Below, piece by piece: positions 30,106-46,792 of a stretch of DNA of 64,000 nucleotides. The position numbers and the translations under genes were made by a program. Below the pieces are notes generated by a model. The model saw only the letters and a program-made list of their open reading frames with translations. It searched no databases and was not told where the DNA came from. Position 1 is the first letter of the stretch. Every line of letters starts with the position of its first letter. This stretch comes from an uncultured Nitrospiraceae bacterium (GTDB lineage: Bacteria > Nitrospirota > Nitrospiria > Nitrospirales > Nitrospiraceae), in assembly GCA_963846575.1 (NCBI GenBank), contig CAWJWJ010000002.1, positions 1,216,001 to 1,280,000 of the forward strand, written 5' to 3'.

Positions 30106-33100
30106 AGCATACAGTCCAGGGCTATCGCCTGTCGCCCACACAGGAACGGCTATGGCTTCTGGAACGGAGCAGCCCACAGGCGCGCCTTGAGGGCCATTGC
30201 ATCGTCGCGGTCACGGGGCCCCTGGATCCGGGGGTGTTGAGAACCGCTGTCCGGCAGGTCGTTCAACGCCATGAGATTCTCCGGACGACCCTCCGGAGCA
30301 TTCCCGGCATGATGTTTCCCGTGCAGGTCATTGCCGACGAAAATGTCCTCGCCTATGAGGAGCAGGACCTGACCGCGAACCGGACGCGAGAGCGGGACGC
30401 CGTGATCGGCCCGCTCCGGCCGGCCACCTGCGACGACCGGCCGGATGCGGCGGGTACGCCGGTGGTGCGCATCATCGTCAAGAGAATCGAGGCGGCCAGG
30501 CATGAAGTGCAGATCAGCCTGCCGGCATGTTGTGCCGACGGAATCACCTTGAAGAACCTGGTGCGCGAAATCAGTTCAGCGTACCGGTCTCGTCTCCGGG
30601 CTGAAGCGGTAGAGATGGACGAGCCGCTGCAGTATGCCGATGTGGCCGAGTGGCAGCAGGCGCTACTGGAGGATGAGGCCGGGGCTGCCGGACGGGACTA
30701 TTGGCGCAAGCAGGCCGGGCCGATTGCTGCCTGGCTCGAAACCCGGCTGCCTGGCGAGCATCCGGCGGCCGAGAGGACGGTATTTACTCCACGAGAGGTC
30801 CCTGTTCCCGTCTCCCGGGAGTCGGTTGAACGCCTGGATGATCTGGCCGCACGGCAGGGCATCTCCGGTTCGAGCTGTTTGCTGGCCTGCTGGGGCATCC
30901 TGCTCCAGCGTCACATCGGACAGGCGGACGTTCTCATCGGTGTGGCGAGTGACGGCCGACCGCACGGGGAGATGCAGGACGCTTGCGGCGCCTTCGCGAA
31001 GTACCTGCCGCTCCATCACGCTTCCGAACCAGGCACGCAATTTGATGCGTATGCGCAGACTCTGCAACGACGGTGGCTCGAGCTTGACGAATGGCAGGAG
31101 TATTTCAGCTGGAAGGATGTCCAGGACCTGGTGGATCCCGCTCACGATCCCTTCTTCCCCTTCTGTTTCGACTACGGCGACCTGGCGTCGTCCTGCTCCG
31201 GCGACGAGGGTCTCTCGTTCAGGGTCGAGCAGAGCCATGCCTATATCGATCGCTTCAAAATACGTTTCCGGTGCGCGCGAAAGGGCGACGTGATCGAGGC
31301 AGCTTTGCATTATGATGCCGGGCTTTATCAGGAGCCCATGATCGCCTGCCTGGCAGGACAGTTGGCCACGTTGCTGGATCATGCCGCGCGGCACCCGGAA
31401 AAGGCCGTCGACGATCTGGAGATGGTGAGCGAGGCGGAGCGTCATCGCGTGCTCGAGATTTTCAGCCGGGAAGGCGTCGGGGCGGGCGGCGACGACCGTT
31501 GCCTGCATCACCTGTTCGAGGCGCAGGTTGAGCGGACACCGGAGCGCATCGCCCTTCTCCATGAGGGCCGGTCAGTGACCTATCGCGACCTGGATCGGCG
31601 GGCCAATCAAGTTGCGCGCTATCTGACCAGCCGGGGAGTCGGCGCGGGAACCATGGTCGGACTCTGCATGGAACGCTCGCCCGACCTGATCGTGGGGATC
31701 GTGGGTATTCTGAAGGCGGGCGGCGCCTATGTCCCGATCGATTCGGCCTATCCCAAGGAGCGCATCGTCTATCTCCTCCAGGATTCCCGGGCAGCTCTGG
31801 TTCTGACTCAGGCAAGGTTTCAGGAAGGGCTGACCGAACTCGGCGCTGTCGTCCTGAGCCTGGATGGAGAACGCGAGACCATCGAGGAACACAGCGGGAC
31901 GACTCCCTCGATTCCTTTCACTGCGGCCGGCGCGGCCTACATGATCTATACGTCCGGTTCGACGGGGAAACCGAAAGGCGTGCCGGTGAGCCACCGGAAC
32001 GCGGTGCACTCCACGCGCGCGCGGCTCGGCTATTACGACGGTGCCGTCTCCTGTTTCCTGCTGCTGTCTTCCGTGGCATTCGACAGTTCCGTCGCCGGCA
32101 TTTTTTGGACTTTGAGCGGAGGCGGCACGTTGTGTCTCCCCGGGGAGGGAGTACAAAAAGCTCCCGTCGAACTCGGCGTCCTTATCGAACGGGAACAGGT
32201 GACGCATGTGCTGTGCCTTCCCTCTCTATATTCATCGTTACTGGGGGAGGTGCCGGTACACCAACTGCGCTCGCTCCGGACGGTCATCGTGGCCGGCGAA
32301 AGCTGCCACCGCGATTTGGTGGCGCGGCACCATGCTCATCTGCCGGGGACGCAGCTCTGTAACGAATACGGCCCGACGGAAGGGACGGTCTGGAGTAGCG
32401 TGTACCAGTGCCGGCAGCCGGAAGGGAATACGACCGTGCCGATCGGCCGGCCGATTGCCGGAGTAAGCATCTATCTCCTGGATCATGGCTTGAGACCGGT
32501 TCCCATCGGGATTCCCGGCGAATTGTGTATTGCCGGAGCAGGCCTGGCCTCGGGGTACCATAACCGGCCGGCCCTGACCGCGCAGAAATTCATCCCCGAC
32601 CCCTTCGGATCGGCTGCCGGAAGCCGTCTGTACCGGACCGGTGATCTGGCACGCTACCGGCCGGATGGAAACATTGAGTTTATCGGACGCCGCGATCAGC
32701 AGGTGAAGCTCCGCGGCTATCGCATCGAACTGGGGGAGATCGAAGCACGGCTGCTCGAGCATCCGGAGATAGAGGAAGCCGTGGTGCTTCTCCGCGAGAG
32801 CCGCGCCGGGGAAACGCAGCTGGTGGCCTATCTCGTCTCCAAACAGGCGGCACTCAAGGCTCCGGTGGTGAAGGAGTATCTGAAGGCCAGCCTGCCGGAA
32901 TACATGGTTCCCCCGACGATCGTCTTCCTGGGTGCCTTGCCACTGAGCCCCAATGGCAAGGTGGATCGAAACGCGTTGCCCGCGCCGGATGCCGGGACTG
33001 CCCTGCTGGAAAGGTACGAGGCACCTCGCACGACGACGGAGGAACTCCTGGCCGGGATCTGGGGCGATGTGCTGCAGGTGCCCCGGGTGGGGGCGGGTGA

Positions 33101-36100
33101 CAATTTTTTCGACCTGGGCGGCCATTCCCTGCTTGCGACGCAAGTGATGGCGAGGGTGCGGGAGGTGTTTCAGATGGAGGCGCCTGTGCGCCTCCTCTTC
33201 GAGACGACTTCCGTGGCGGAGCTGGCCCGGGTGCTGGACTCGTTCCGCTGCCGGAGGCCGGGCCTCGACGCGCCGCCGCTCGTACCGATCAGGCGAGAGG
33301 AAGCAGCGCCGCTCTCCTTTGCGCAGCAACGCCTGTGGATCCTGGCTCAGTTGGATCCGGAGGGGACGGCCTACAATATTCCGATCGCATTGCGCGTCAC
33401 GGGCCCATTGAATCTGGCCGCCCTGGAATGGAGCTTTCATGAACTCGTCGCACGCCATGAGGTGCTGAGAACGACCTTTCAGACCACGAAGGCCGAGGCA
33501 GTCCAAGTCATCGCGGCCTCTCTCAGGGTTCCGCTACCGGTGATCGATCTGCAGCACGTCCCCGAACAGACTCGCCTCGAAGCGGCGATGCGTCTGTCTG
33601 AAGCGGAGGCGAACCGGCCGTTCGAGTTGCAATATGGTCCGCTTGTGCGGACCAGTGTCATTCGGCTGCAGCCGGAAGAACACGTCCTGCTGGTGAGCCT
33701 GCACCATATCGTGTCGGATGCCTGGTCTGCCCGGATTCTGGTCCATGAAATGAGCCTGCTTTACGAAACGTCTCTTCACGGCGGGGCATCGACGCTGCCG
33801 GAGTTGCCGATTCAGTATGCGGATTTCGCCATCTGGCAACGCAGCTGGCTGTCGGGCGATGTGCTCGAACGGGAGTTGTCGTATTGGCGGCAGCTGTTGG
33901 GAGGAGATCTGCCGCAACTGGAGTTGCCCACGGATCGACCGAGGCCTGCGGTTCACAGGACCCACGGAGCCACCCTGTCATCGCTGCTGCCCGGAGATCT
34001 ATCAGCCGCCCTGAGAGAACGTAGCCGCCGTGCCCGCGCGACGGTGTCCATGCTGTGCCTGGCGACCTTCTCGTTGTTGCTCTCGCGCTATTCAGGACAG
34101 GAAGACCTCGTTGTGGGGACGCCGGTGGGCAATCGCACTCGCCGCGAGCTGGAGCCATTGATCGGGTTTTTTGTGAATACCCTGGCCCTGCGCATCAACC
34201 TGTCCGGCAATCCGACGGTCGACGAGGTCGTGGCGCGGGTGCGGGACGTGTGCCTCGGGGCCTATGCGCACCAGGAGGTCCCCTTTGAAAAGCTGGTAGA
34301 AGTGTTACAACCAGCGCGACAGCTCGGCGCCTCCCCGATCTTCCAGGTCATGTTTGATTTTCAGCATGCTTCCGCTGAACCGCCGGAAGTGCCCGGGTTG
34401 CGGTTTGCACCCTTGGCCGCCGTCACGCACACCGCCAAATTCGATCTATCAATGACCGTCGCGGACCGGGGCGCGGAGTTTGAGGTGAGCCTCGAATACA
34501 ACACCGATTTGTTCGAACCCTCCACCATCGGACGTATGGCCGCTCACTTCCAGTCGCTCCTCGACGCGGTCGTGACCAGGCCGCAGCAGCGACTGAGCGA
34601 GCTCGCGCTGATGGGGGCGGAGGAGCGGGTGACGGTGGTGGAAACGTGGAATCAGACGGCGCGCGCCTATCCGACCGACCGGACGGTGCCGGACCTGATT
34701 GCCGCCCAGGCGGTGCGAACCCCCACGGCAGTGGCCGTCCGGGATGGCGAGAAGACGCTGACCTACGCGGCGCTGCTGGAGCGGGCGAATCAGGTGGCGC
34801 AAGCCATTCGGGCCCACGGGGTCGGGACGGAGTCCCTGGTTGGTATCGCGCTGGAGCGGTCGCTGGATTTGGTGGTGGGTCTGCTGGGGATTTGGCAAGC
34901 CGGGGCGGCCTATGTGCCGCTGGACCCGAGCTATCCGTCGGAACGGCTTGCCTACATGCTGGCCGATAGCGAAGCCGCGCTGCTCCTGACGCAGACGGGG
35001 CTGGGCGTACGGGTGTCCTTCGCCGGGCCCACCTTGTACGTGGACCGGGATTGGCCGCGCATTGCCACCTATCCGCCGGTGGCTCCCGACGGCGAACGCC
35101 CGGACGAGGCCCTGGCCTATGTCATCTATACATCGGGGTCGACGGGGTTGCCCAAGGGGGCCGGTAACACGCACGGGGCGCTGCGCAATCGTCTTCAGTG
35201 GATGCAGGAGGCCTATGGGCTGACGGCGGCCGACCGGGTGTTGCAGAAAACCCCGATCAGTTTCGACGTGTCCGTATGGGAGCTCTTCTGGCCGCTGCTC
35301 GTCGGGGCCGAGCTGGTTCTGGCCGCCCCGGGCGAACACAAGGATCCGGCGGCGCTGATTGAACGCATCGTGCGGACCGGGGTCACGACGTTGCATTTCG
35401 TGCCGCCCATGCTGCAGGCGTTTCTCGAGTCGTCCGGGGTCGAGCGCTGCCGGTCGTTGACGAGGATCATGTGCAGCGGTGAAGCCTTGCCGGCGGATCT
35501 TCCGCCGCTGGTGCATCGGCTTTGGCCAGGGGCGGGATTGCACAACCTCTACGGGCCGACCGAGGCCGCCATCGATGTGACCGCCTGGGCCTGTCCGCTC
35601 CAGGCGGGGAGCACCGTGCCCATCGGGCGTCCGATCGCTAACACGCAGATCTATGTGTGTGATGCAGAGGGAGAGCCTGTTCCCATAGGGGTACCGGGCG
35701 AGCTTTATATCGGGGGCGTGGCCGTCGGGCGGGGTTATCACCGGCGGCCCGCGCTCACGGCGGAGCGTTTTGTGCCGGACCGGTTCAGTGCGAACCCGGG
35801 CGCGAGGCTCTATCGCACCGGCGATCTGGTGCGATCCCGGCCAGATGCCGCCATCGAGTATCTTGGCCGCCTGGATCACCAGGTGAAGATTCGAGGAGTC
35901 CGGATCGAGCTGGGGGAGATCGAGCAGACGCTGCGTCAACAGCCGGGGATTCGAGAGGCCGTGGTTGTGGCGCGTGGCGACGGGCCTAAGCAACTGGTGG
36001 GGTATGTGACGACGATCCCGGAGACGGCCGTGGACTGTGCGGCGCTGCGGCAGGCATTGGGGCGGACGTTACCGGACTATCTCGTGCCGGCGGTGATCGT

Positions 36101-37280
36101 TCCGATGCCGCACCTGCCGCTGAGTCCGAACGGCAAGGTGGACCGCAAAGTCTTGCCGGCTCCGGATCTGGGGAGTGCGCTCACGAATCGTTACGTGGCC
36201 CCGCGGACTGTCCGGGAAGAAATGCTGTCGACACTATGGGCTGAGGTGCTGGGACTGTCCCGTGTGGGGATTCATGACAACTTCTTCGATCTGGGCGGGC
36301 ACTCTCTCTTGGCGGTGCGACTCGTCTCTCGATTGCAACAGTCGATCGGTCGCCCTATCTCATTGATGTCGGTCTTCCAACATCCGACCGTAGCGACATG
36401 GGCGGACTACTGCGACGGTCTCGAGGACGAACGTCCCTCGCCGTTACGATCCATACAGCCAGCTGGTTCTCGTCCCCCGTTGTACTGCATCGACCCCACC
36501 GGGACGCATGTGCTCGCGTACCGGCCCTTGGCCTATGCGCTGGGGGAGGATCAACCGGTCTACGGCATCACCCTGAGCCGGATCTTTTCAATGTCGTGGA
36601 CTGACCTTTCGATCGCGCGGATGGCGGCGGAGTTCGCGCGTGAGATCCGACATCATCAACCGACGGGGCCCTATCGATTGCTGGGATGGTCGAATGGCGG
36701 GGCCATGGCCCTGGCAATCGCTCAGGCGTTGGAATGTCAAGGAGAAGTGATCGAGTTCCTCGGGCTTCTGGATACGCAGCCCCCTCTGGAGACTCATGCC
36801 GGCGGGCATGTCGAGATCATCGATGAAATGATGGCTTACATTTCGCGCGAACGCCGCGAAACGTTTTTTTCCCTGCCCGACACAGAACGGCAGGCGCTTC
36901 GCACGCAGTTAATGCAGCTCAACGAGGAAGATCGGCTCGTCCACGCGATTCGATGGGCGCTCGCCCACGGATTATTGTCTGCCGAAGAATCACAGGCCTC
37001 GGTTGAGGCGCTCAAGATCGGGTACGCCCTGGGAAGGAGCACAATCTGCTTCCTGCAGGCATTCCAACCCGGAACCCTTCACGCCCCGCTCTCGGTTTGG
37101 TGGACCAGCGACACGCTCGGGCGGCATGGCCGGGCTCCGATCGACTGGCAGCGATACACCCGTGGGGAAGTATCCAGTTACTCCGTTACCGGTGATCACA
37201 GGGATGCGGTGCAGAGCATTCAGGTGCATCAAAAGATCGACGAGATTCTGCGCGGGCTCCGCGCGGAGGAGTGTGAATGA
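30084..37280 (+). CDS. NRPS 4 (terminal), interface-type C*-A(His)-T-C-A(Ser)-T-TE
   Basis: The first C-like domain lacks the catalytic His (LPACCADG). Codes DSALIAEVWK (His) and DVWHMSLIDK (Ser). TE motif GWSNG with late GDH. RBS AGGAGG. Confidence 0.92.
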   Translation: MSGSETVKHTVQGYRLSPTQERLWLLERSSPQARLEGHCIVAVTGPLDPGVLRTAVRQVVQRHEILRTTLRSIPGMMFPVQVIADENVLAYEEQDLTANRTRERDAVIGPLRPATCDDRPDAAGTPVVRIIVKRIEAARHEVQISLPACCADGITLKNLVREISSAYRSRLRAEAVEMDEPLQYADVAEWQQALLEDEAGAAGRDYWRKQAGPIAAWLETRLPGEHPAAERTVFTPREVPVPVSRESVERLDDLAARQGISGSSCLLACWGILLQRHIGQADVLIGVASDGRPHGEMQDACGAFAKYLPLHHASEPGTQFDAYAQTLQRRWLELDEWQEYFSWKDVQDLVDPAHDPFFPFCFDYGDLASSCSGDEGLSFRVEQSHAYIDRFKIRFRCARKGDVIEAALHYDAGLYQEPMIACLAGQLATLLDHAARHPEKAVDDLEMVSEAERHRVLEIFSREGVGAGGDDRCLHHLFEAQVERTPERIALLHEGRSVTYRDLDRRANQVARYLTSRGVGAGTMVGLCMERSPDLIVGIVGILKAGGAYVPIDSAYPKERIVYLLQDSRAALVLTQARFQEGLTELGAVVLSLDGERETIEEHSGTTPSIPFTAAGAAYMIYTSGSTGKPKGVPVSHRNAVHSTRARLGYYDGAVSCFLLLSSVAFDSSVAGIFWTLSGGGTLCLPGEGVQKAPVELGVLIEREQVTHVLCLPSLYSSLLGEVPVHQLRSLRTVIVAGESCHRDLVARHHAHLPGTQLCNEYGPTEGTVWSSVYQCRQPEGNTTVPIGRPIAGVSIYLLDHGLRPVPIGIPGELCIAGAGLASGYHNRPALTAQKFIPDPFGSAAGSRLYRTGDLARYRPDGNIEFIGRRDQQVKLRGYRIELGEIEARLLEHPEIEEAVVLLRESRAGETQLVAYLVSKQAALKAPVVKEYLKASLPEYMVPPTIVFLGALPLSPNGKVDRNALPAPDAGTALLERYEAPRTTTEELLAGIWGDVLQVPRVGAGDNFFDLGGHSLLATQVMARVREVFQMEAPVRLLFETTSVAELARVLDSFRCRRPGLDAPPLVPIRREEAAPLSFAQQRLWILAQLDPEGTAYNIPIALRVTGPLNLAALEWSFHELVARHEVLRTTFQTTKAEAVQVIAASLRVPLPVIDLQHVPEQTRLEAAMRLSEAEANRPFELQYGPLVRTSVIRLQPEEHVLLVSLHHIVSDAWSARILVHEMSLLYETSLHGGASTLPELPIQYADFAIWQRSWLSGDVLERELSYWRQLLGGDLPQLELPTDRPRPAVHRTHGATLSSLLPGDLSAALRERSRRARATVSMLCLATFSLLLSRYSGQEDLVVGTPVGNRTRRELEPLIGFFVNTLALRINLSGNPTVDEVVARVRDVCLGAYAHQEVPFEKLVEVLQPARQLGASPIFQVMFDFQHASAEPPEVPGLRFAPLAAVTHTAKFDLSMTVADRGAEFEVSLEYNTDLFEPSTIGRMAAHFQSLLDAVVTRPQQRLSELALMGAEERVTVVETWNQTARAYPTDRTVPDLIAAQAVRTPTAVAVRDGEKTLTYAALLERANQVAQAIRAHGVGTESLVGIALERSLDLVVGLLGIWQAGAAYVPLDPSYPSERLAYMLADSEAALLLTQTGLGVRVSFAGPTLYVDRDWPRIATYPPVAPDGERPDEALAYVIYTSGSTGLPKGAGNTHGALRNRLQWMQEAYGLTAADRVLQKTPISFDVSVWELFWPLLVGAELVLAAPGEHKDPAALIERIVRTGVTTLHFVPPMLQAFLESSGVERCRSLTRIMCSGEALPADLPPLVHRLWPGAGLHNLYGPTEAAIDVTAWACPLQAGSTVPIGRPIANTQIYVCDAEGEPVPIGVPGELYIGGVAVGRGYHRRPALTAERFVPDRFSANPGARLYRTGDLVRSRPDAAIEYLGRLDHQVKIRGVRIELGEIEQTLRQQPGIREAVVVARGDGPKQLVGYVTTIPETAVDCAALRQALGRTLPDYLVPAVIVPMPHLPLSPNGKVDRKVLPAPDLGSALTNRYVAPRTVREEMLSTLWAEVLGLSRVGIHDNFFDLGGHSLLAVRLVSRLQQSIGRPISLMSVFQHPTVATWADYCDGLEDERPSPLRSIQPAGSRPPLYCIDPTGTHVLAYRPLAYALGEDQPVYGITLSRIFSMSWTDLSIARMAAEFAREIRHHQPTGPYRLLGWSNGGAMALAIAQALECQGEVIEFLGLLDTQPPLETHAGGHVEIIDEMMAYISRERRETFFSLPDTERQALRTQLMQLNEEDRLVHAIRWALAHGLLSAEESQASVEALKIGYALGRSTICFLQAFQPGTLHAPLSVWWTSDTLGRHGRAPIDWQRYTRGEVSSYSVTGDHRDAVQSIQVHQKIDEILRGLRAEECE

Positions 37281-37579: not shown

Positions 37580-39268
37580 TTAAAAGATGCTCCTACTCAA
37601 TTCTCCGGATGGTGAGCTTTCGTTTCCGCTCCTGTCGTAGGCAGTCACCACGAAGAAGTAGGTCGATCCCAACGGCAACGTCAGTCGCGTCGTTGTAACA
37701 TTTCCCACATCGAACATTTGAGCGCGCGAGCCCGAGGACGTCCCTACGTACACCCGATACCCTTGAAGATCGCCTTCACTGTTCGCACTCCATGTGACGG
37801 TGACCGTTCCGGTTCCCGTCCCGGAAGGTGGCGGCGGCGGCGTGGCACTGCCGATCGGCGGCGGTGATGACGGCGGCGTGGTGCCGGTTGCAGAGACCGT
37901 GGCTGTCACCGGGATGCGCAACATGTTTGACCCGTTGGGGCCGCTTTCGCTGATATAGACTACGGCGGAATAGGTGCCGACATTCAACGCCGCGGTGTTG
38001 ACCGTGACGGTGATGGGATCGACTTCGGAGGTAATCGTCTGGGTGCTGCCATAGGGCGGGTTGAGCGTGATCCAGGACTGGTTCGTGCTGATGCTATAGG
38101 CGCTCTGACTCGAGCCGGATTTTTGCAGATTAAAAATACCTGTCGCGGGTGAGCCTTTGGGGGCCGAGAGCGAGAGGGCGGCAGGGAAGGCCTGGATCAT
38201 GGGCGTCAAGGATCCGCTCGGGGGTGGGGGCGGCGGCGTCGTGGATGGCGGCGGCGGCGTGCTCGACGGCGGCGGGGGCGTCGTGGATGGCGGTGGCGGC
38301 GTGCTTGACGGCGGCGGCGGGGTCGCTGCTGGCGGCGGCGTGGTGCCGGACGCGGCGACCGTGATCGCGACGGGGATGCGCAACATGTTCGACCCGTTAG
38401 GGCCGCTTTCGCTGATATAGACTACGGCGGAATAGGTGCCGACATTCAACGCCGCGGTGTTGACCGTGACGGTGATGGGATCGACTTCGGAGGTAATCGT
38501 CTGGGTGCTGCCATAGGGCGGGTTGAGCGTGATCCAGGACTGGTTCGTGCTGATGCTATAGGCGCTCTGACTGGAGCCTGATTTTTGCAGATTAAAAATA
38601 CCTGTCGCGGGTGAGCCTTTGGGGGCCGAGAGCGAGAGGGCGGCAGGGAAGGCCTGGATCAAGGGTTTCAAGGAGCCGCTGGGCGGTGGGGGCGGCGGCG
38701 TCGTGGATGGCGGCGGCGTGCTCGAGGGCGGCGGCGGGGGCGTCGTGGATGGCGGTGGCGGCGTGCTTGACGGCGGCGGCGGGGTCGCTGCTGGCGGTGG
38801 CGTGCTCCCGGCTGCGGTCACGGTAGTGGTCACCGGAATGCGCCACGTGGTCGAGACACCAGGACCGGATTGTCCGATATAGATGACCCCCGAATAGGTA
38901 CCAGCCGAAAGTCCCATCGAAGCGGTATTCACCGTCACCGTAATGACGTCGGTTTCGGTGGAAATTGTTTGAGTGCTGCCATAGGGGGGATTGAGCCAAA
39001 TCCAGGATTGGTTTGCGCTGATGAAATAGGTCTGTTGTGAGGCGTCTGTCTTTTTGAGGGTGAGGGTTCCGGTGCCGGTGCTTCCCTGTGGGACCGTGAT
39101 CGATACGGCGCCCGGCGTAAACTGAATATTCTGTCCGAAGGCCAGTGACCCTCCTGCCGCACATTCCATCAGTCCGAACATGAGCATCAAGGCGAGTATA
39201 TGTCCGGTCGCACGAGAGCGGACGCCTTGAATTGGATGTGCGTTGAGTGATGCGGGTAGGCCGATCAT
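37580..39268 (-). CDS. Secreted/surface protein: three BACON/Ig-like repeats joined by Pro/Thr/Ser linkers, C-terminal fibronectin type III domain
   Basis: Signal-like N terminus. Repeated S(T/A)NQSWI(T/W)LNPPYGSTQTI...ITVTVNTA...GTYS. TPPPPSS linkers. C-terminal VTWSANSEGDLQGYRVYVG...YFFVVTAYDRSGNES. RBS AAGGGGG. Confidence 0.82.
   Translation of the reverse strand: MIGLPASLNAHPIQGVRSRATGHILALMLMFGLMECAAGGSLAFGQNIQFTPGAVSITVPQGSTGTGTLTLKKTDASQQTYFISANQSWIWLNPPYGSTQTISTETDVITVTVNTASMGLSAGTYSGVIYIGQSGPGVSTTWRIPVTTTVTAAGSTPPPAATPPPPSSTPPPPSTTPPPPPSSTPPPSTTPPPPPPSGSLKPLIQAFPAALSLSAPKGSPATGIFNLQKSGSSQSAYSISTNQSWITLNPPYGSTQTITSEVDPITVTVNTAALNVGTYSAVVYISESGPNGSNMLRIPVAITVAASGTTPPPAATPPPPSSTPPPPSTTPPPPSSTPPPPSTTPPPPPPSGSLTPMIQAFPAALSLSAPKGSPATGIFNLQKSGSSQSAYSISTNQSWITLNPPYGSTQTITSEVDPITVTVNTAALNVGTYSAVVYISESGPNGSNMLRIPVTATVSATGTTPPSSPPPIGSATPPPPPSGTGTGTVTVTWSANSEGDLQGYRVYVGTSSGSRAQMFDVGNVTTTRLTLPLGSTYFFVVTAYDRSGNESSPSGELSRSIF
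37911..38834. repeat. 462-bp tandem duplication (two near-identical units, third diverged unit from 38835)
   Basis: gggatgcgcaacatg at 37911 and 38373, and ggaatgcgccacg at 38835, give an exact 462-bp (154-codon) period. Confidence 0.92.
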
Positions 39269-39323
39269 GGCAGGTATCCCCCTTAGGTATGTTCAAATGG
39301 AAAATGCAATCGCCTGTTGGTTG

Positions 39324-39338
39324 GCAACAGGCGTGCCA
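39324..39338 (-). promoter_or_regulatory. Sigma54 (RpoN) -24/-12 promoter for the repeat surface protein
   Basis: Minus strand TGGCAC-GCCTG-TTGC is a perfect TGGCAC-N5-TTGC match, 55 nt upstream of the start codon in an AT-richer intergenic region. Confidence 0.75.
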
Positions 39339-39773
39339 CCGCAAGTACAGCAGGTGTTGCGCTTATTTGTTTGTCGGGAATCACTCAGCAGAATTCGGTG
39401 AGATTCCGGACAGGACGAAGATCAGGGCTGACCCTAACCAAAGAACTTCGATTAGGCAAGTAAAAAATTCGTAACGGTCAGGTACGCTGTTCACCGAGGT
39501 CAGGTAGAACGGCTCTATCCGGAGACGACCAACGGTTTGAATGAGTCACCGGATGGCACAAACCCGCCGGAGTTTCCTCGTCGATTCACATCACAGCGTT
39601 GGAATGAGGCTCGGAGCCGGGGATCGCCGGTTGTCGCATCATATTGCGGCTCAGAAACTTGTTGACCGGTGCCCATAGGTAGGGTATCTGTGTGCCGCCC
39701 TTTAGATGAGGTACGTAGTCGATCAAATGTGGCACGGCAAAAAGTGACCGGAATATAGAGGAGTCTTGAGACT

Positions 39774-40808
39774 ATGATCGCGCTCCGATCTCTGGCCTGG
39801 GTGTTCGTGCTGTGCCTTGCCGTAGAGGGTGTATCGTTCGCCACAGAGGAAGCCGCGCCTCCTCCTCGCCCATCCTCGAGCCCCCGGGTGGATGTCAGCC
39901 TGTCCGAATGGTTTAGCCAGGGTGAAACGGTCTGGAGCCATAACGCCTCCGGTCTGGACCCGAACCTGGGCAACCCCAGTTCAAAACTGAAGTACAAGGA
40001 TACCGGCACCAACGTGACCGAACTCACCGCGCGGGTGCACCTCAAGAACAAGGTCTTCGTCCGGGGCGCGTTCGGATACGGCGTCGTCGGCGGTGGGCGC
40101 CTCACGGACGATGATTTTCTGAGTGCTCAGGGCGCGGCAAGCCAGGGCGCGAGCGTCAGCGGCGCACATCGATTTTCACGCACCTACAGCGACATTAGCG
40201 GCGACAACCTTTGGTATCTCAACGGTGATCTGGGCGTGACGGCATATACGTTTCCAAACAACAAGGGCAGTCTCGGGTTGTTCGTGGGATTGCAGTATTG
40301 GCGGGAGCGGCACACTGCAACCGGGGTGACGCAAGCCGAATGTACCACAGCGTCCTCTCCGAGCTCGGATTTCCGCTGTTCTCCGGCGGGTACGGTCGGA
40401 TTCCGCAATCAAACGGTGATTACCAATTCCGTGACCTGGGTTTCGGCGCGCTACGGAGGCGAGCTCGAGTACAAGCTCGACTCACGCGTCAGTATCGACG
40501 CAAAAGCTGCGCTGTTGTTCTCCTATCTGAACAATGAGGATGTCCACCACCTGAGAACCGATCTGGCGCAGGATCCGAGTTTCCGGATGACGGGTCTTGG
40601 CGTCGGAACGAATACAGATGTGAACCTTCGCGTCAGAATCTGGGATCGCTTATATCTGACGGGTGGCTATCGCGTCTGGTGGAATCGCGTGCTCACGGCT
40701 GATCAGTGGAAAATCTACGGCGCGAATGGATCGTCGGCGACGGCTCCTCTGACTGAATTTCAAACCCTTCGGCATGGACCCACTGTCGGACTGATCTATA
40801 CGTTCTAG
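39774..40808 (+). CDS. Outer-membrane beta-barrel, omptin-like (OmpT/Pla-like) protein
   Basis: Signal peptide, alternating beta-strand pattern, C-terminal aromatic GLIYTF. SKLKYKD, RLTDDDF and NEDVHH resemble the OmpT SQLDW, DQDW and DEH motifs. Confidence 0.65.
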   Translation: MIALRSLAWVFVLCLAVEGVSFATEEAAPPPRPSSSPRVDVSLSEWFSQGETVWSHNASGLDPNLGNPSSKLKYKDTGTNVTELTARVHLKNKVFVRGAFGYGVVGGGRLTDDDFLSAQGAASQGASVSGAHRFSRTYSDISGDNLWYLNGDLGVTAYTFPNNKGSLGLFVGLQYWRERHTATGVTQAECTTASSPSSDFRCSPAGTVGFRNQTVITNSVTWVSARYGGELEYKLDSRVSIDAKAALLFSYLNNEDVHHLRTDLAQDPSFRMTGLGVGTNTDVNLRVRIWDRLYLTGGYRVWWNRVLTADQWKIYGANGSSATAPLTEFQTLRHGPTVGLIYTF

Positions 40809-40939
40809 GCGTCGGCAAAACCGGGTGATCGCTGAACGGTCCGACCTGCACGTTTGCCTTCGAGGTATCACGCCGGCAGCACACGCAGACCGTTCTGCTG
40901 CGCGGAGGCTTCAAGGTCGGCGGGCCTGGAGTGGAACGG

Positions 40940-42013
40940 TTATCGGGACCGGGAGGGACCGGTTTCATCTTCGTACTCGGCGAACAGCCGTTTGGCCTCC
41001 GGGTGGAGTAGATGGGGTTGCCCATAGGGGATGCCGGCGGTTCGAAACAGCGGGGTCAGCTTTTCGTTCGGGTGCAGGTATCCCGCCCGCAGGGGGACGG
41101 ACCGTTTCGTGTGACGGATAAGCGAGCAGGGGGTTGGACGGATGGCCGTCAACCAATCGGCAATATCCTGGGGGTTTCCGATGGAAGCGGAAAGCAGCAG
41201 GAGACGGGCTTGCGCTGGACAGAAGATCAAGGTTTCTTCCCAGACGACACCACGTTCCGGATCGGCTAAATATTGGGATTCATCCATGATGACCAGCCCC
41301 AGGGTATCCAGGCGAACGTCGATTTCCCCGCCCGCTGCATCATAGAGCAGATTGCGCAAAATCTCGGTGGTCATGATCAACAGGGAAGCCTGAGCGTTCT
41401 CGCGGCGATCACCCGTGAGAATTCCCACCTGCTCGGGGCCGAAGATGCGCGAGAATTCGGTGAATTTCGTGTTCGAGAGCGCCTTGAGTGGCGAAGTGTA
41501 AATCACCGTGCGATTTTCACGTATCGCCCGCGCAGTGGCCTCGATAGCGACATATGTTTTCCCGCTTCCCGTAGGCACGCTGACCACGACGTCCGTTTCG
41601 GCGAGCCGTGCCAGCGCGTCAATCTGCCAGGCATCCGGCACAAAGGGTTGCGGCGGCGGCACCCCGATGCCCGATAACCATTCGTGCAGTGAAACGGGCG
41701 GGTCATGGTGATGGCCAGGCTCTTCGGTCTTTGCCGGACGCTGCGGCTGGTGGGGCGCGAGGGGTCGGGGTTTGATTGGCGTCCGGGCCGGGGTTTCGGC
41801 GGTTGCAGCGGGCCGGCGATGAGTCTGTTCTTCGATCAAGGCGAGGAGATCAGACTCCAGGCCGGGACGGTTTTCCGGCGAGGCATGCAAGAGTAGATCG
41901 ACGAGTTTACGTTTGCCTGACCGGAAGTGCCGGCTGATGCGTCCACGCGCCAGGCGATGGAGCAGTGAGACCGGTTGTTTCAACAGAAGCTGTTCGAGTT
42001 CGTGTGTCGTCAT
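40940..42013 (-). CDS. Ski2/HelY-like helicase, N-terminal (RecA1/ATP-binding) half as a separate gene
   Basis: Q motif PDAWQ, Walker A PTGSGKT, SPLKALSN, MTTEILRNLLY, motif II variant DESQ, RGVVWEE, motif III LSAS. Ends before motif IV. Confidence 0.85.
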   Translation of the reverse strand: MTTHELEQLLLKQPVSLLHRLARGRISRHFRSGKRKLVDLLLHASPENRPGLESDLLALIEEQTHRRPAATAETPARTPIKPRPLAPHQPQRPAKTEEPGHHHDPPVSLHEWLSGIGVPPPQPFVPDAWQIDALARLAETDVVVSVPTGSGKTYVAIEATARAIRENRTVIYTSPLKALSNTKFTEFSRIFGPEQVGILTGDRRENAQASLLIMTTEILRNLLYDAAGGEIDVRLDTLGLVIMDESQYLADPERGVVWEETLIFCPAQARLLLLSASIGNPQDIADWLTAIRPTPCSLIRHTKRSVPLRAGYLHPNEKLTPLFRTAGIPYGQPHLLHPEAKRLFAEYEDETGPSRSR

Positions 42014-42116
42014 GCGGACCTTGTGCCTGTAGAGGCAGCCGTTTCCGCAGGTCCTCCTGATGGCCGACAGGCCACCAGCGTGGCTGACCGGCTGCTACGA
42101 ATCATGCGGTACGTCC

Positions 42117-43979
42117 TCACGGTAATTCCTCCAGTACCCCTCGCCGCATCGCCTCGATGGCCTTGGACGCCGACTCCGCAAGGGAGGGGTGCGTCCCTTT
42201 CAAGGTTTTGAGTTGCGACAGAAACTCGATCGTGCGCGCAAACAGCCTGAACATGTCGCCCTCGGCCATCGTCGTGAGACGGGCCAGCCCGATCCAGGTG
42301 AGGGTTTGGTCCGCCACCCATCGTTCCGTCAACGCCGCGACGTCGGCCCGAAGCATCGGTGGCTCCTCGTGGGGGAGGAGGCTCTCTGCCAGTTTACGGA
42401 CTTGAAACAGCAGCGTGACGAGCCCCGTGCTACCCCGGGGAAAGGACCCCGGACGGTCGTCATCATGGGCGATACTGGCCATGATGGCGGCAAGCAAGGG
42501 CGGGTCGATCGCACCAAACGCTTCAGCACGGATGAGTTCAGTGATCAAGAGGGAATGATCGATGCGGATGAGCCTCGCCCATTCGCCGTCGGCGGTGAGC
42601 TGGGCATTGGCGTTGAGGTAGCCGAATCGCTCCAAGACATCGATTCGTTCCTGGAAGCGATGCCACAAACTCGTTTGAAGGGCCTGGATGGACTTCGTGT
42701 GCCGGAGAATTTCCTGACGGATCCGCGACGCCTTGGGGAAATCCCGCTGGCAGGCCTGCCGTGAAGGGCAGGACGGACAGGGGAAATCACCCAGGGTATG
42801 AATAATGGAGCTGTCGAGCGGCGCGTCCTCTTCGGGTTGGGCCAGGATCGGCAGGATCGGCAGCCGCGGCGGCAGGTCCACCAGGTGCTGAGTTAATTGT
42901 TCCATTGCTTGCGGAGTCGTCCACGGGTAGGTGGACGATTCCTCGAAGTCATACGTGCGGTCGAACACCTGCGTGACGATCGAGGCGGGACACTCGCTCA
43001 GTGCGCCGCCTTCCCGCATAAGCGTCAGCATGGGCGCGTGCTGGCCCTTGCTGCGGTACTGGCGGAGGATGATGCCGCGCCCCCGTACCAGTCCGATGAC
43101 CCGTCCCGGTGTGAGAAAATTCAAGCGCGCCGCGACGTCCGGCGGTTCCTGCCTGGCTGCGGGCCCCCGGGGTTTCTTTCGTTTACGGGCCTGGTCAAAA
43201 ACCTGCCACTGCGTGATCCAATCCGAGCAGACCCGCGGGCCGAAAGGCTCCATCTCCACGCGGAGGGCGTCGAGTTTGGTTTCGAGCACGGCGGTGCGCT
43301 GGTTCAACTGGAACTGGGCAAAACTTTTCGCCAGGATCGACTGAATCTGTTCGCGCGGATGCGCCTTGAGCAGGTTCAACACCATCGGATAGCTGATCAC
43401 GAACTGGCTGTGGATCGGTTCCGGCTGTCCCGTGAGTCCCTTGGTCAGGACGGTCAGGTCGATGTAGGGCGATGGGGTGATGACGGCAAATCCCACGAGG
43501 TCCTTGCCCCGGCGGCCGGCGCGGCCGGCCAGTTGCTGAATTTCACTGGCCGTCAAATCAGTGAAATCCCGGGCCTTGCGGATGCTGGACTGAGTCACGA
43601 CCACGGTGCGCGCGGGGAAGTCGACACCGGCGGCAAGCGTGGTGGTTGCGAACACGGCGTCGAGAGAGCCGGTGCGCATCAGTTCTTCGACCGCGATCTT
43701 CCAGGAGGGCAAGTGCCCGGCATGATGTGCCGCGACACCGATACGTTGGACGGTGTCGATCAGGGGATGTTCCGCGATGCTGGGAAACTGTGAGGTGACG
43801 TGGGTCAGGACCTCGGCAATTTGCGCCTGGCGGGTCTTGGGAAGGACGACCTGACTGCGCTCGAAGGACTGCATAGCCTCGTCGCAGGCCCGTCTCGAGG
43901 TAAGGAAAATAATCGCGGGAGTGAGATTTCTTTGGCGGAGAGTCGCGACCAGATCAACCGGATGAATCGACGGCGGCAT
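42117..43979 (-). CDS. Ski2/HelY-like helicase, C-terminal half (RecA2, winged helix/arch, DSHCT-like) as a separate gene
   Basis: Starts at motif IV PAIIFLTSRRACD. HHAGHLP, FATTTLAAGVDFPARTVV, motif VI QLAGRAGRRGKD, C-terminal EGDMFRLFARTIEFLSQL...MRRGV. No Walker A/B. Confidence 0.87.
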   Translation of the reverse strand: MPPSIHPVDLVATLRQRNLTPAIIFLTSRRACDEAMQSFERSQVVLPKTRQAQIAEVLTHVTSQFPSIAEHPLIDTVQRIGVAAHHAGHLPSWKIAVEELMRTGSLDAVFATTTLAAGVDFPARTVVVTQSSIRKARDFTDLTASEIQQLAGRAGRRGKDLVGFAVITPSPYIDLTVLTKGLTGQPEPIHSQFVISYPMVLNLLKAHPREQIQSILAKSFAQFQLNQRTAVLETKLDALRVEMEPFGPRVCSDWITQWQVFDQARKRKKPRGPAARQEPPDVAARLNFLTPGRVIGLVRGRGIILRQYRSKGQHAPMLTLMREGGALSECPASIVTQVFDRTYDFEESSTYPWTTPQAMEQLTQHLVDLPPRLPILPILAQPEEDAPLDSSIIHTLGDFPCPSCPSRQACQRDFPKASRIRQEILRHTKSIQALQTSLWHRFQERIDVLERFGYLNANAQLTADGEWARLIRIDHSLLITELIRAEAFGAIDPPLLAAIMASIAHDDDRPGSFPRGSTGLVTLLFQVRKLAESLLPHEEPPMLRADVAALTERWVADQTLTWIGLARLTTMAEGDMFRLFARTIEFLSQLKTLKGTHPSLAESASKAIEAMRRGVLEELP

Positions 43980-45192
43980 TCAGTTTCATTCCCTTTGAGA
44001 TAACGACCAGCCCGGAGTCGGTGACTTTGAAGCGTTGGCGGTCCGTGACCGGGTCGTAGCCGATCTCGGTTTTGGGTGGGATGATGACGTCTTTGTCGAT
44101 GATTGCGCGTCGGATGCGGGCATGCTCGCCGATCACGACGTTTTCCATCAAGACGGACTCCCGTACGTCGGCATGGTCGTGAACGCGCACGTTGGGGGAG
44201 AGAACCGAGTTCTGCACGCGCCCGCCGGAAATGATACAGCCTCCGCAGACGATGGAATCGAGCGCGACTCCCATCCGGCCGCCCTGGAAATCCTGGGCAA
44301 AGACGAACTTGGCGGGAGGGAATTGTCCCTGATAGGTGCGAATGGGCCATTCCTGATCGTAGAGGTTGAAGAGCGGATCGACCGCCACGAGGTCCATGTT
44401 GGCTTCCCAATAGGCATCCAACGTGCCGATGTCGCGCCAGTACTTCACCGCTTTCTTGTTCTCGTCCTGGAATTTGAACGCGTACACGCGGTTTTCATTG
44501 ATCATGCGCGGAATGATGTTCTTCCCGAAATCGTGTTTGGTCCCTTCCTTGGCGTCCCGGATGAGCTGCTCGCGGACGACCTCGGTCCGGAACAGGTAGA
44601 TGCCCATGGAGACAAATGCCTGTGTCGGATCGCCGGGAATGTGCGAGGGCTTTTCCGGTTTCTCATCGAAGCTCAATATCCGCCGGTCTTCATCCACTGC
44701 GATGACGCCGAATCGGTTGGCATCGGCCAGCGGGGTTTCGATCGCACCCACGATTGCATCCGCCTGCTTCTCGATCAGCAGGTTGTACATGTCGGCATAG
44801 TTCATCTTGTAGATGTGATCTCCGGCCAATATCAGAAGGAACTCAGGGAGATCATTGTCCAGCAGGAACAGATTCTGAAACACGGCGTCAGCCGTGCCTC
44901 TGTACCAGTCTTCGCTGATGCGTTGCTGCGGAGGAATTGAGGCAATGTATTCGCCCAGCTCGAGATTCAGAATATTCCATCCGGTGCGGATATGCCGGTC
45001 GAGCGAATGGGATTTGTATTGGATCAGGACGGCGATCTGGCGCAGCCCGGAGTTCAGGCAGTTACTGAGCGTGAAGTCGATGATGCGGTATTTGCCGCCG
45101 AACGGAACGGCTGGTTTCGCGCGCTGATCGGTGAGAGGATTCAAGCGCTCGCCCTTTCCTCCCGCCAGCACCATGGTGAAGATCTTTGGCAT
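43954..45192 (-). CDS. glgC: Glucose-1-phosphate adenylyltransferase
   Basis: LAGGKGERLNPLT..RAKPAVPFGGKYRIIDF, WYRGTADAV, AGDHIYKMNY, SMGIYLF, YWRDIGT. Start is 45192 or 45201. Confidence 0.96.
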   Translation of the reverse strand: MPKIFTMVLAGGKGERLNPLTDQRAKPAVPFGGKYRIIDFTLSNCLNSGLRQIAVLIQYKSHSLDRHIRTGWNILNLELGEYIASIPPQQRISEDWYRGTADAVFQNLFLLDNDLPEFLLILAGDHIYKMNYADMYNLLIEKQADAIVGAIETPLADANRFGVIAVDEDRRILSFDEKPEKPSHIPGDPTQAFVSMGIYLFRTEVVREQLIRDAKEGTKHDFGKNIIPRMINENRVYAFKFQDENKKAVKYWRDIGTLDAYWEANMDLVAVDPLFNLYDQEWPIRTYQGQFPPAKFVFAQDFQGGRMGVALDSIVCGGCIISGGRVQNSVLSPNVRVHDHADVRESVLMENVVIGEHARIRRAIIDKDVIIPPKTEIGYDPVTDRQRFKVTDSGLVVISKGMKLNAAVDSSG

Positions 45193-45253
45193 ATTAGGCA
45201 TAGATGGGCGGGATTGTATCAGGACGATGACGGAATAGAAAGCACGCAGAATG

Positions 45254-45282
45254 TTGACTTCATCTCGAACTGGGACGATACT
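45254..45282 (+). promoter_or_regulatory. Putative sigma70 promoter
   Basis: TTGACT-17nt-GATACT upstream of the ORF at 45335, in the divergent intergenic region. Confidence 0.5.
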
Positions 45283-45334
45283 ACGAATCGGCGGGCCTCC
45301 CCGGCCTCAGGTCGGTCTCAATCAAGGAGCAGAC

Positions 45335-45613
45335 ATGAAAAAAGTCAATGCGCAGCCGGTCGGTATCAAGTCTGGAACCGAGGCGGCCAATCCGATGATG
45401 GAAATGGTCTGGCGACTCGGACGGTTGGAGCGGCAGGTGCAACGCTTGTCCGAACTGGTACGGAACCATGCCGAAGACAATGACCGGTTGGTGCGGATTG
45501 TGGCGGAGGATCGTGACGTGATTCGACGCGAACTGTTGCGGAAGCACGAACATCGGGTGCGGGTGCGCAAACATCTGCGCGATGTGAGTTCCAAAGTCGG
45601 CATGGAACACTGA
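45335..45613 (+). CDS. Small hypothetical coiled-coil protein (92 aa)
   Basis: RBS AAGGAG before ATG 45335. Heptad-like LGRLERQVQRLSELVR. Fills the gap before potA. Confidence 0.65.
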   Translation: MKKVNAQPVGIKSGTEAANPMMEMVWRLGRLERQVQRLSELVRNHAEDNDRLVRIVAEDRDVIRRELLRKHEHRVRVRKHLRDVSSKVGMEH

Positions 45614-45652
45614 CCGTTGTCTTCCGGTATGCCGCGGTGAACCCAGCCTCTG

Positions 45653-46792
45653 ATGGCGACGCTTGCCACTCCTCCTTTATCCGCATCTGACGGTTCCACC
45701 CTCCCTTCAGGTCCCACGATCGAGATCCGCGGAATCGGGCGGCGCCATGGGTCCGTCATGGCCGTCGATCACGTGAGCTTTGACGTTCGTCGCGGCGAAT
45801 TTTTTTCCATTCTCGGTCCGAGCGGCGCGGGGAAGACGTCTTTGCTGCGCATGATGGCCGGTTTCGAGGACCCCGACGAGGGCGATCTGTTGATTGAAGG
45901 TCGGTCGATGCTCGGGGTGCCGCCGAATCGACGGCCCGTGAATCTGGTCTTTCAATCCTACGCGCTGTTTCCCCATCTGACTCTATTTGAGAATGTCGCC
46001 TTCGGCTTGAGAATGCGGGGGATACGCGCGTCCCTTCTCCATGAGAAGGTGCAGCAAGCCCTGGTAATGGTCAAGCTGACCGGTAAGGAGGCGCGACTGC
46101 CGGCGCAGCTCTCGGGCGGCGAGCAACAGCGGGTGGCCCTGGCGCGCGCGTTGGTCAATAAACCGGCGGTGGTGTTACTCGATGAACCGCTGGCGGCGTT
46201 GGATCAACAATTACGGCAGGAGATGCAGGTCGAACTGAAATCCATTCAAGAACAGGCGGGACTGACGTGTGTGTGCGTCACGCACCATCAGGAAGAGGCC
46301 ATGATGATGTCGGACCGCATCGCGGTGATGCATCAGGGACGCATGTGGCAGATCGGGCCTCCCCGGGAAGTCTATGAGCGGCCCGCCAATCTGTTTGTGT
46401 CGAGATTTCTTGGCGTGTCCAATGAACTGCCCGGCAAGATCCTTGGCAGCAGGGGGGGAGAGACAGCCTTTCAGCCTGCCGCGGGTGAGCAACCTCCCTT
46501 GCTGGTGCGATGGCGTAGCGGCGCCGAGAATGGCCGGTCGGCCACCTTGTCTCTCCGACCGGAGCACCTTCGCATGACGACTGAACGGCCTTCGGTGTCC
46601 GACCAGGTCGTCCCGGGTCGGATTGAAAAGGTGCTTTTCGTCGGGAGTGACACGAAATATCTTGTTCGAGTGAGCCAGGATCGACGATGGGAAGTCCGGC
46701 TGGCCTCGACGGCCCACTCGGCATCGTTCGTTCCGGGAGCGTCGGTGTTTCTTCAATGGTCCCTGTCTGACGGGCGGCTCTTCCTGGAATGA
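45653..46792 (+). CDS. potA: Spermidine/putrescine ABC transporter ATPase
   Basis: GPSGAGKT, VNLVFQSYALFPHL, LSGGEQQRVALARAL, LLDEP, C-terminal TOBE-like region. Confidence 0.9.
   Translation: MATLATPPLSASDGSTLPSGPTIEIRGIGRRHGSVMAVDHVSFDVRRGEFFSILGPSGAGKTSLLRMMAGFEDPDEGDLLIEGRSMLGVPPNRRPVNLVFQSYALFPHLTLFENVAFGLRMRGIRASLLHEKVQQALVMVKLTGKEARLPAQLSGGEQQRVALARALVNKPAVVLLDEPLAALDQQLRQEMQVELKSIQEQAGLTCVCVTHHQEEAMMMSDRIAVMHQGRMWQIGPPREVYERPANLFVSRFLGVSNELPGKILGSRGGETAFQPAAGEQPPLLVRWRSGAENGRSATLSLRPEHLRMTTERPSVSDQVVPGRIEKVLFVGSDTKYLVRVSQDRRWEVRLASTAHSASFVPGASVFLQWSLSDGRLFLE

Follow-up and report, generated by a model that had tools for sequence, protein, structure and literature searches.

The window analyzed here is a stretch of 64,000 nucleotides (nt) from the genome of an uncultured Nitrospiraceae bacterium (contig CAWJWJ010000002.1, positions 1,216,001 to 1,280,000). 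On its minus strand, two consecutive open reading frames (ORFs), P0001 (620 amino acids, aa) and P0002 (357 aa), are, as judged from sequence comparison, one helicase of superfamily 2 (SF2) of the Mtr4/Ski2/HelY type, with the gene for the C-terminal half (C-half) preceding the gene for the N-terminal half (N-half). The original prediction, made from the letters of the window alone, had already assigned the C-terminal half to the upstream gene and the ATPase half to the downstream gene and had described both as clean ORFs with starts of their own, and all of this stands: each ORF begins with ATG and is free of internal stops, P0001 contains a Helicase_C domain (aa 78-158), the CPSC-x5-C cysteines and a DSHCT domain, and P0002 contains a DEAD domain (aa 130-283) and the RecA1 motifs (Table 1; domains from a Pfam scan). 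Residues 113-341 of P0002 align to residues 44-269 of the intact homolog P0136 (913 aa; 45% identity) and residues 10-613 of P0001 to residues 284-906 of the same protein (32% identity); the two products tile P0136 without overlap, and therefore one helicase is covered by two genes in reversed order. No intact copy and no second P0001 or DSHCT-type match was found in the 4.2-Mb, two-contig genome to which the window belongs, where the other matches of P0002 are weak and at the level of motifs. A promoter and terminator scan of the locus returned hits at chance level.

Table 1. Features of the split helicase genes and the adjoining glgC (positions are those of the window)
Feature	Position	Strand	Remark
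C-half gene (P0001), 620 aa: most of RecA2 (motifs IV, IVa, V, VI), winged helix, arch insertion, DSHCT helical bundle	42117..43979	-	
N-half gene (P0002), 357 aa: N-terminal four-helix domain, low-complexity linker, RecA1 (Q, I, Ia, Ib, II, III), RecA1-RecA2 linker, first RecA2 strand/hairpin	40940..42013	-	
Intergenic spacer, 103 nt	42014..42116	-	
N-terminal four-helix domain, N-half aa 1-66	41816..42013	-	predicted local distance difference test (pLDDT) about 90
Walker A / motif I PTGSGKT, N-half aa 147-153	41555..41575	-	
Motif II DESQ, N-half aa 244-247	41273..41284	-	
N-half tail aa 301-352: linker RSVP (304-307), strand LRAGYL (308-313), hairpin, end helix	40958..41113	-	
C-half strand 163-168 GFAVIT, predicted partner of N-half strand 308-313	43476..43493	-	complex model
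Motif VI QLAGRAGRRG, arginine-finger motif, C-half aa 149-158	43506..43535	-	
C401/C404/C410 (CPSC-x5-C) in C-half arch	42750..42779	-	
DSHCT domain, C-half aa 459-616	42132..42605	-	PF08148, E 7.8e-23
glgC, glucose-1-phosphate adenylyltransferase, outside the helicase	43954..45201	-	passes NCBIfam TIGR02091

The best matches among the sequences of the Protein Data Bank are Mtr4, Ski2 and FRH (E 4e-31 for the C-half and 5e-38 for the N-half), and the structural model of another intact homolog, P0049, also matches Mtr4, FRH and Ski2 first (E 1e-51). The motifs are distributed as expected for a Ski2-like protein, with RecA1 (Q, I, Ia, Ib, II and III) on the N-half and RecA2 (IV, IVa, V and VI) on the C-half. 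The winged helix, arch and DSHCT part is likewise recognizable: PF08148 scores above its cut-off, the alignment of the C-half to Mtr4 runs from RecA2 into the arch, and the C-half is collinear with the intact homolog, the model of which resembles Mtr4 along its length. The domain set RecA1-RecA2-winged helix-arch-DSHCT is shared with the eukaryotic DExH RNA helicases Mtr4 (Dob1), FRH and Ski2; unlike these, the helicase described here consists of two chains cut inside RecA2, has C-before-N genes, DESQ in place of DExH and an extra N-terminal four-helix domain, and resides in a bacterial host. HelY of Mycobacterium smegmatis (MSMEG_3885 / Rv2092c) is also a bacterial DSHCT-containing Ski2-like helicase but is one chain, and the likeness to it is one of family labels (many homologs and one member of the C-half cluster carry the JGI label 'ATP-dependent RNA helicase HelY'). 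The nearest intact homologs found are ~700-940 aa long, and those with names come mostly from Desulfobacterota (45-56% identical to the N-half where the two match), in addition to Acidobacteriota-like ones. Suv3 is related to Ski2, and has Q for H at motif II, and its Pfam family DEXQc_Suv3 is matched weakly; it differs in having one chain per motor and another C-terminal architecture. The resemblance is that of the motif II change only. In SF2 helicases, the ATP site is formed between a pair of RecA domains that belong to the same chain. Because neither the single-chain RecA pair nor DExH is found here, the two-gene helicase is a variant and not a plain member of the Ski2-like SF2 family.

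Both halves are present in 41 of 41 relatives. Of 161 Nitrospirales genomes in an order-wide draw, 159 yielded the C-half and 157 the N-half, each in a single copy; the rows were read by eye from the best 150 matches per half. Among the matches listed, 146 genomes have both halves, which are adjacent and in the C-before-N order in 143; the N-before-C order occurs in none, the halves are C-before-N but 25 kb (G279) or 7 kb (G224) apart in two, and in G227 they lie on different contigs. The longest open frames among the matches listed are 769 and 626 aa, and therefore none of these rows holds an intact gene; a close relative with one intact gene, which the original prediction had named as counter-evidence, is thus lacking among them. 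Neither half was found in G177 and G188, and in G072 the C gene sits at a contig end. A phylum-wide draw (151 genomes) gave full-length matches within Nitrospirales only and, elsewhere, weak partial matches in frames of 543-983 aa. The nearest loci, most of them labelled Nitrospira, are 90-94% identical. The C-before-N order on one strand was also seen in 101 of 110 fetched loci (30 from relatives, the window's own included, and 80 others; some genomes are represented twice and kin are not independent), the other nine being truncated by contig ends no more than 400 nt from the C gene. The five genomes of family f4 have non-adjacent halves, which in four of them lie on different contigs. The layout recurs in many independent assemblies, including several single-contig genomes; the split and its reversed order, for which conservation in related genomes had been proposed as a check, are kept throughout the order.

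Selection on the genes was assessed by the Nei-Gojobori estimate of the ratio of nonsynonymous to synonymous substitution rates (dN/dS) for 29 genus-level loci, those with glgC among 31 distinct loci; pairs with saturated dS were dropped, which left 391-406 of 406 pairs for whole genes, and given dS values of 0.8-1.6 the ratios are approximate. The C-half has a ratio of 0.039 and the N-half one of 0.047; with glgC at 0.035, both halves are under purifying selection similar to that on this neighbour, without the neutral decay that would have spoken against the original prediction. Within the N-half, the ratio is 0.020 for RecA1 and also for the tail (aa 304-350; 318 pairs), 0.063 for the N-terminal domain and 0.23 for the low-complexity linker (219 pairs). 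The motifs needed for catalysis are intact. Among 103 N-half ORFs, motifs I, Ia, Ib and III show little or no variation (PTGSGKT at motif I in all 103, which are outside f4); motifs IVa and V do not vary among 107 C-half ORFs, and the arginines of motif VI are retained. Together with the order-wide conservation and the low dN/dS, this agrees with the earlier proposal that the rearranged split is probably selected. The two-gene helicase is real, old and selected.

Outside the motor core, cysteines C251, C401, C404 and C410 of the C-half are each invariant in 38 of 38 Nitrospirales rows, with matching cysteines in 58-59 of 86 intact homologs; from this conservation, they form a probable zinc site in the arch, and a literature search found no source for a Ski2 zinc site. 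The N-terminal four-helix domain of the N-half is lineage-specific and absent from the three f4 N-halves recovered whole. Its SAP/Rho_N-like look-alikes have Atlas scores of 0.76-0.82, all below 0.9, and are a weak lead; the fold search with the whole N-half chain was filled by RecA1 matches and barely probed this domain. The nearest look-alike of aa 1-66 (score 0.82) is an Atlas cluster of 102-aa hypothetical proteins whose commonest phylum is Nitrospirota and which may be a stand-alone relative of the domain or fragments of the same gene.

The cut itself had been placed in the linker between RecA1 and RecA2, and this was not borne out. The N-half keeps the RSVP linker and also the next strand and hairpin, and the cut falls ~35-45 residues past RSVP, inside RecA2 and after its first strand. 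Residues 123-308 of the N-half model match residues 147-325 of Mtr4 (4qu4; Z 24.3, root mean square deviation 1.4, 178 residues aligned), and the N-half extends ~50 residues beyond this match to RecA1 of Mtr4, which we take to end near residue 325. In the AlphaFold model of the intact homolog P0049 (pLDDT 91.6), a strand (236-241) comes directly after the RPVP linker (232-235), and then a hairpin, a short helix, a loop and the helix 276-285 that precedes motif IV. The C-half begins at this last helix, the linker, strand and hairpin being left on the N-half. The stretch at 250-275 of P0049 has a length of 25-53 residues across 86 intact homologs, with poor conservation at 261-273; it is not disordered in the P0049 model. 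With a poorly conserved stretch of variable length at the break, the cut therefore corresponds to a variable loop inside RecA2.

Complex modelling, which had been suggested as a check of the predicted heterodimer, placed the tail of the N-half into the RecA2 sheet of the C-half. For residues 301-352 of the N-half and 1-200 of the C-half, the score was 0.82, versus 0.00 for the best of three controls; at least 85% of the contacts are shared between runs, the pLDDT of the partners is at least 79, and the mark applied to such models is reached by 116 of 157 solved complexes and by 2 of 215 mismatched pairs. In the model, strand 308-313 of the N-half pairs with strand 163-168 of the C-half, and the start of the C-half (MPPSIHP-like), conserved in 38 of 38 rows, is part of the predicted interface. 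The model thus supports binding of the two halves. Reverse gyrases of Nanoarchaeum equitans and Methanopyrus kandleri are naturally split, and their two subunits are described as an active heterodimer (PMC4117796). The likeness lies in a helicase-containing enzyme made as two associating subunits, the association being modelled in the present case; the cuts in the reverse gyrases, in contrast, separate the helicase from the topoisomerase module or fall within the topoisomerase, and leave the SF2 motor on one chain, whereas here the ATP site would span two chains.

Based on the observed split, gene order, conservation, selection, motifs and cut site, we consider it highly likely that the two genes encode a two-subunit helicase of the Mtr4/Ski2/HelY type that works as a heterodimer. 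An ancestral single gene would have been cut in a variable surface loop within RecA2. The N-subunit would comprise RecA1, with ATP binding and the catalytic DE, the covalent RecA1-RecA2 hinge and the first RecA2 strand with its hairpin, and the C-subunit what is left of RecA2, with the arginine-finger motif VI, as well as the winged helix, Cys-liganded arch and DSHCT bundle. Through the modelled strand complementation, the tail strand of the N-subunit would slot into the RecA2 sheet of the C-subunit and restore a normal motor with its hinge. The ATP site would be rebuilt across the two chains from motifs Q, I, II and III of RecA1 and motif VI of RecA2, and the RNA path would run over motifs Ia, Ib, IV and V and the helical bundle, in keeping with the roles of SF2 motifs in the ATP site and in RNA contact as given in PMC9023267. 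By family knowledge, from which the heterodimer in vivo, the RNA substrate and the polarity are drawn, the complex would hydrolyse ATP when stimulated by RNA, translocate 3' to 5' along a single-stranded RNA tail and open RNA duplexes or RNA:DNA hybrids, presumably in housekeeping RNA metabolism; HelY, as described in PMC8931766, serves as the model for such 3'-5' RNA helicase activity. Once split, the genes would be free to move.

Several observations weigh against this proposal. The score of the complex may reflect likeness to the solved one-chain structures of Mtr4 and Ski2, and conservation at the predicted interface does not exceed that of the core around it (0.80 vs 0.79 for the N-half; 0.81 vs 0.77 for the C-half). 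Because identity to Mtr4 is low outside RecA1, substrate and polarity are only inferred. One genome, G251 (99% complete, 30 contigs), has the C gene in mid-contig and no N-half was found in it. Finally, motif II is DESQ in 103 of 103 N-halves and DEAQ in the three f4 ORFs, and not the DExH type, as opposed to DEAH in 119 of 120 longer homologs and in 53 of 53 Acidobacteriota-like split N-halves (see below). The catalytic DE is retained, and Suv3, according to PMC13261141, is active with DEIQ at this position, so that the change to DESQ need not inactivate the enzyme.

Action of the heterodimer on DNA instead of RNA, in repair or defence and in the manner of Hel308 or Hachiman, is unlikely. The top NCBIfam matches are indeed of the Hel308 type and PADLOC returned HamB and SngC (weak, motif-level matches of up to 59 bits), but all these matches are confined to the RecA motifs shared among such helicases, and the Hel308/Hjm scores of each half are 63-76 bits against cut-offs of 887-1216. 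The DSHCT domain and arch place the helicase with Mtr4/Ski2/HelY, and the pair is single-copy and near-universal in the order, with varied non-defence neighbours (38 ORFs scanned with Pfam).

It is quite improbable that the halves have become independent, the C-half as an RNA-binding scaffold or a partner of another ATPase and the N-half as a stand-alone RecA1 module with a new N-terminal domain. The unlinked halves of f4, their separation in G279, G224 and G227 and the missing N-half of G251 would fit such a course, as would the altered motif II and the domain gained by the N-half. However, the halves co-occur almost perfectly across the order, the tail of the N-half that would complete RecA2 is as constrained as RecA1, and the conserved motif VI of one half and Walker A/B of the other make sense only when they face each other across the ATP site, as in the established SF2 mechanism (motif roles in PMC9023267).

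That a single chain is made after all, either by read-through or frameshifting to a circularly permuted helicase or by protein or RNA trans-splicing to the normal order, is very improbable. Circular permutations do arise from a C-before-N layout, and the genes share a 4-nt stop/start overlap in 25 of 96 loci, but the spacers range from this overlap to 256 nt and fall in all three frames (43/34/19), with no conserved frame across relatives, and in some genomes the genes are 7-25 kb apart or unlinked. Neither half matched an intein family (Pfam, NCBIfam), the N-half ends in variable basic residues, and positions 39000-46000 of the window gave no Rfam match at E up to 0.1. An apparent C-N fusion in 1 of 101 loci (L093) was rejected as a false circular permutation, given that a run of N at L093:6837-6902 hides the stop of the C-half and the start of the N-half, and no permuted C-then-N chain was flagged among the longer homologs screened.

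A mis-assembly or decaying pseudogene, as the broken look of a split and reversed gene might suggest, is ruled out by the recurrence of the layout across the order, single-contig genomes included, the lack of internal stops among the C-half matches listed and dN/dS of about 0.04.

The split is not confined to Nitrospirales. A search of 1.84 billion representatives returned intact homologs of ~900 aa and also some proteins that consist of the C-half only. One of the latter, P0135, belongs to a large family, in which the best 120 matches are 612-673 aa long and lack Walker A, and the two rows named by taxon are Acidobacteriota. Among 80 Acidobacteriota-like metagenome loci, a separate N gene lies directly upstream in 53 and upstream past an insert of 2.1-2.4 kb in five, whereas one locus (L199) is intact, in five the upstream sequence, at least 1.5 kb of it, holds no N gene, and the remaining 16 are too short. 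The cut site of this split is the same as in Nitrospirales and the gene order is N-before-C. In phylogenetic trees, the Acidobacteriota-like split forms fall together with the intact L199 and P0152 (support 97-100) and outside the clade of Nitrospirales (100). A single clade of the two was rejected by the approximately unbiased (AU) test (p 1.1e-5; 34 rows hand-picked from 62, themselves picked from 199), which implies at least two fissions, or one fission followed by re-fusions; the AU tests were run on quick trees of hand-reduced row sets, in which deep branches are poorly supported and no named HelY is included. In the Bdellovibrionota-like P0173 family, whose named rows include Bdellovibrionota and Oligoflexia, the best 120 matches are 467-529 aa long, lack Walker A and comprise the C-half only, with motif IV 16-25 residues from the start in 100 of the 103 that match the pattern; a shared origin with the Nitrospirales split was not rejected (AU p 0.19; 38 rows, C-half only). 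A second lineage tolerates a cut at this same site, and a third probably does so too.

Some further observations concern these forms. P0128 (554 aa; JGI, on a 15-kb contig) is a C-half-only protein that starts just ahead of motif IV and falls outside the three split families in trees; it is a possible fourth split or a one-off break. In one Acidobacteriota-like split locus, an ORF for a reverse transcriptase (RVT_1, 437 aa; L132:1898-3208) lies between the N and C genes. Downstream of the Acidobacteriota-like C-half gene, ispH/lytB is found in five of six loci scanned (L130, L132, L144, L161 and L168), in two of them with an intervening Uma2 gene.

Two routes to the reversed order are possible. 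The halves could have separated after fission and re-clustered later, a route that fits the pairs found interrupted or unlinked among the Acidobacteriota-like loci and in f4 (f4 branches first in one tree, not in three others). Alternatively, a tandem duplication followed by loss of the outer halves could have produced the C-then-N order in one step. In Nitrospirales, the C-before-N order is a historical arrangement that has become fixed, with the genes usually close enough to be co-transcribed. It does not seem to be required for function, the halves being apart in f4 and a few other genomes and in N-before-C order in the Acidobacteriota-like lineage. A further conjecture, rather unlikely as a whole, is that the breakpoint after the first RecA2 strand is recurrent, with 2-3 independent fissions, and that the Nitrospirales N-subunit, with its four-helix, possibly SAP/Rho_N-like nucleic-acid-binding domain and DExQ, is a separately supplied plug-in that switches or targets the RNA-binding C-subunit, so that the motor would be regulated by assembly.

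The gene neighbourhoods of the pair vary. The start of the C-half overlaps glgC by 26 nt in the window, and by exactly 26 nt in 95 of 95 loci scored; the overlap noted earlier thus stands and suggests translational coupling only. glgC is a neighbour at the level of one family, and the f2, f3 and f4 loci examined have neighbours unrelated to it. A functional link to glgC is likewise unsupported outside the window's family. In genomes of genus g7 (L207, L208, L210-L211; G251, G227, G279), a sugar-nucleotide/polysaccharide-type cluster, as read from ORF starts, directly follows the C-half gene, and it is this cluster that parts the C from the N gene by 25 kb in G279. Elsewhere in the window, positions 39774-40808 (+) encode a 344-aa outer-membrane beta-barrel-like protein (weak Pom match) convergent with the N-half gene, 37580-39268 (-) a 562-aa Pro/Thr-rich, probably exported protein with BACON_2 domains as near-identical tandem repeats and PPPPSSTPPPP linkers, and 30084-37280 (+) a 2398-aa ORF the translation of which resembles a two-module nonribosomal peptide synthetase with a terminal thioesterase.

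Full-text literature searches, with most subscription journals and supplements outside their coverage, found no description of this helicase split. The split helicase probably adds no new biochemical activity. In nitrifier genomes, the C-half carries the annotation 'hypothetical' or 'helicase-related', and a core RNA helicase is therefore easily missed in these organisms. A natural, order-wide motor with the ATP site on two chains, cut in RecA2, shows at which point such a motor may be opened with no loss, and it provides a ready-made two-component system for the study of ATP-site formation and RecA1-RecA2 coupling in trans, as well as a natural split site to try in Mtr4 and Ski2. For specialists in helicases and in gene evolution, it also documents repeated fission at one site together with the later states of the halves, namely adjacent, interrupted, unlinked and reversed.

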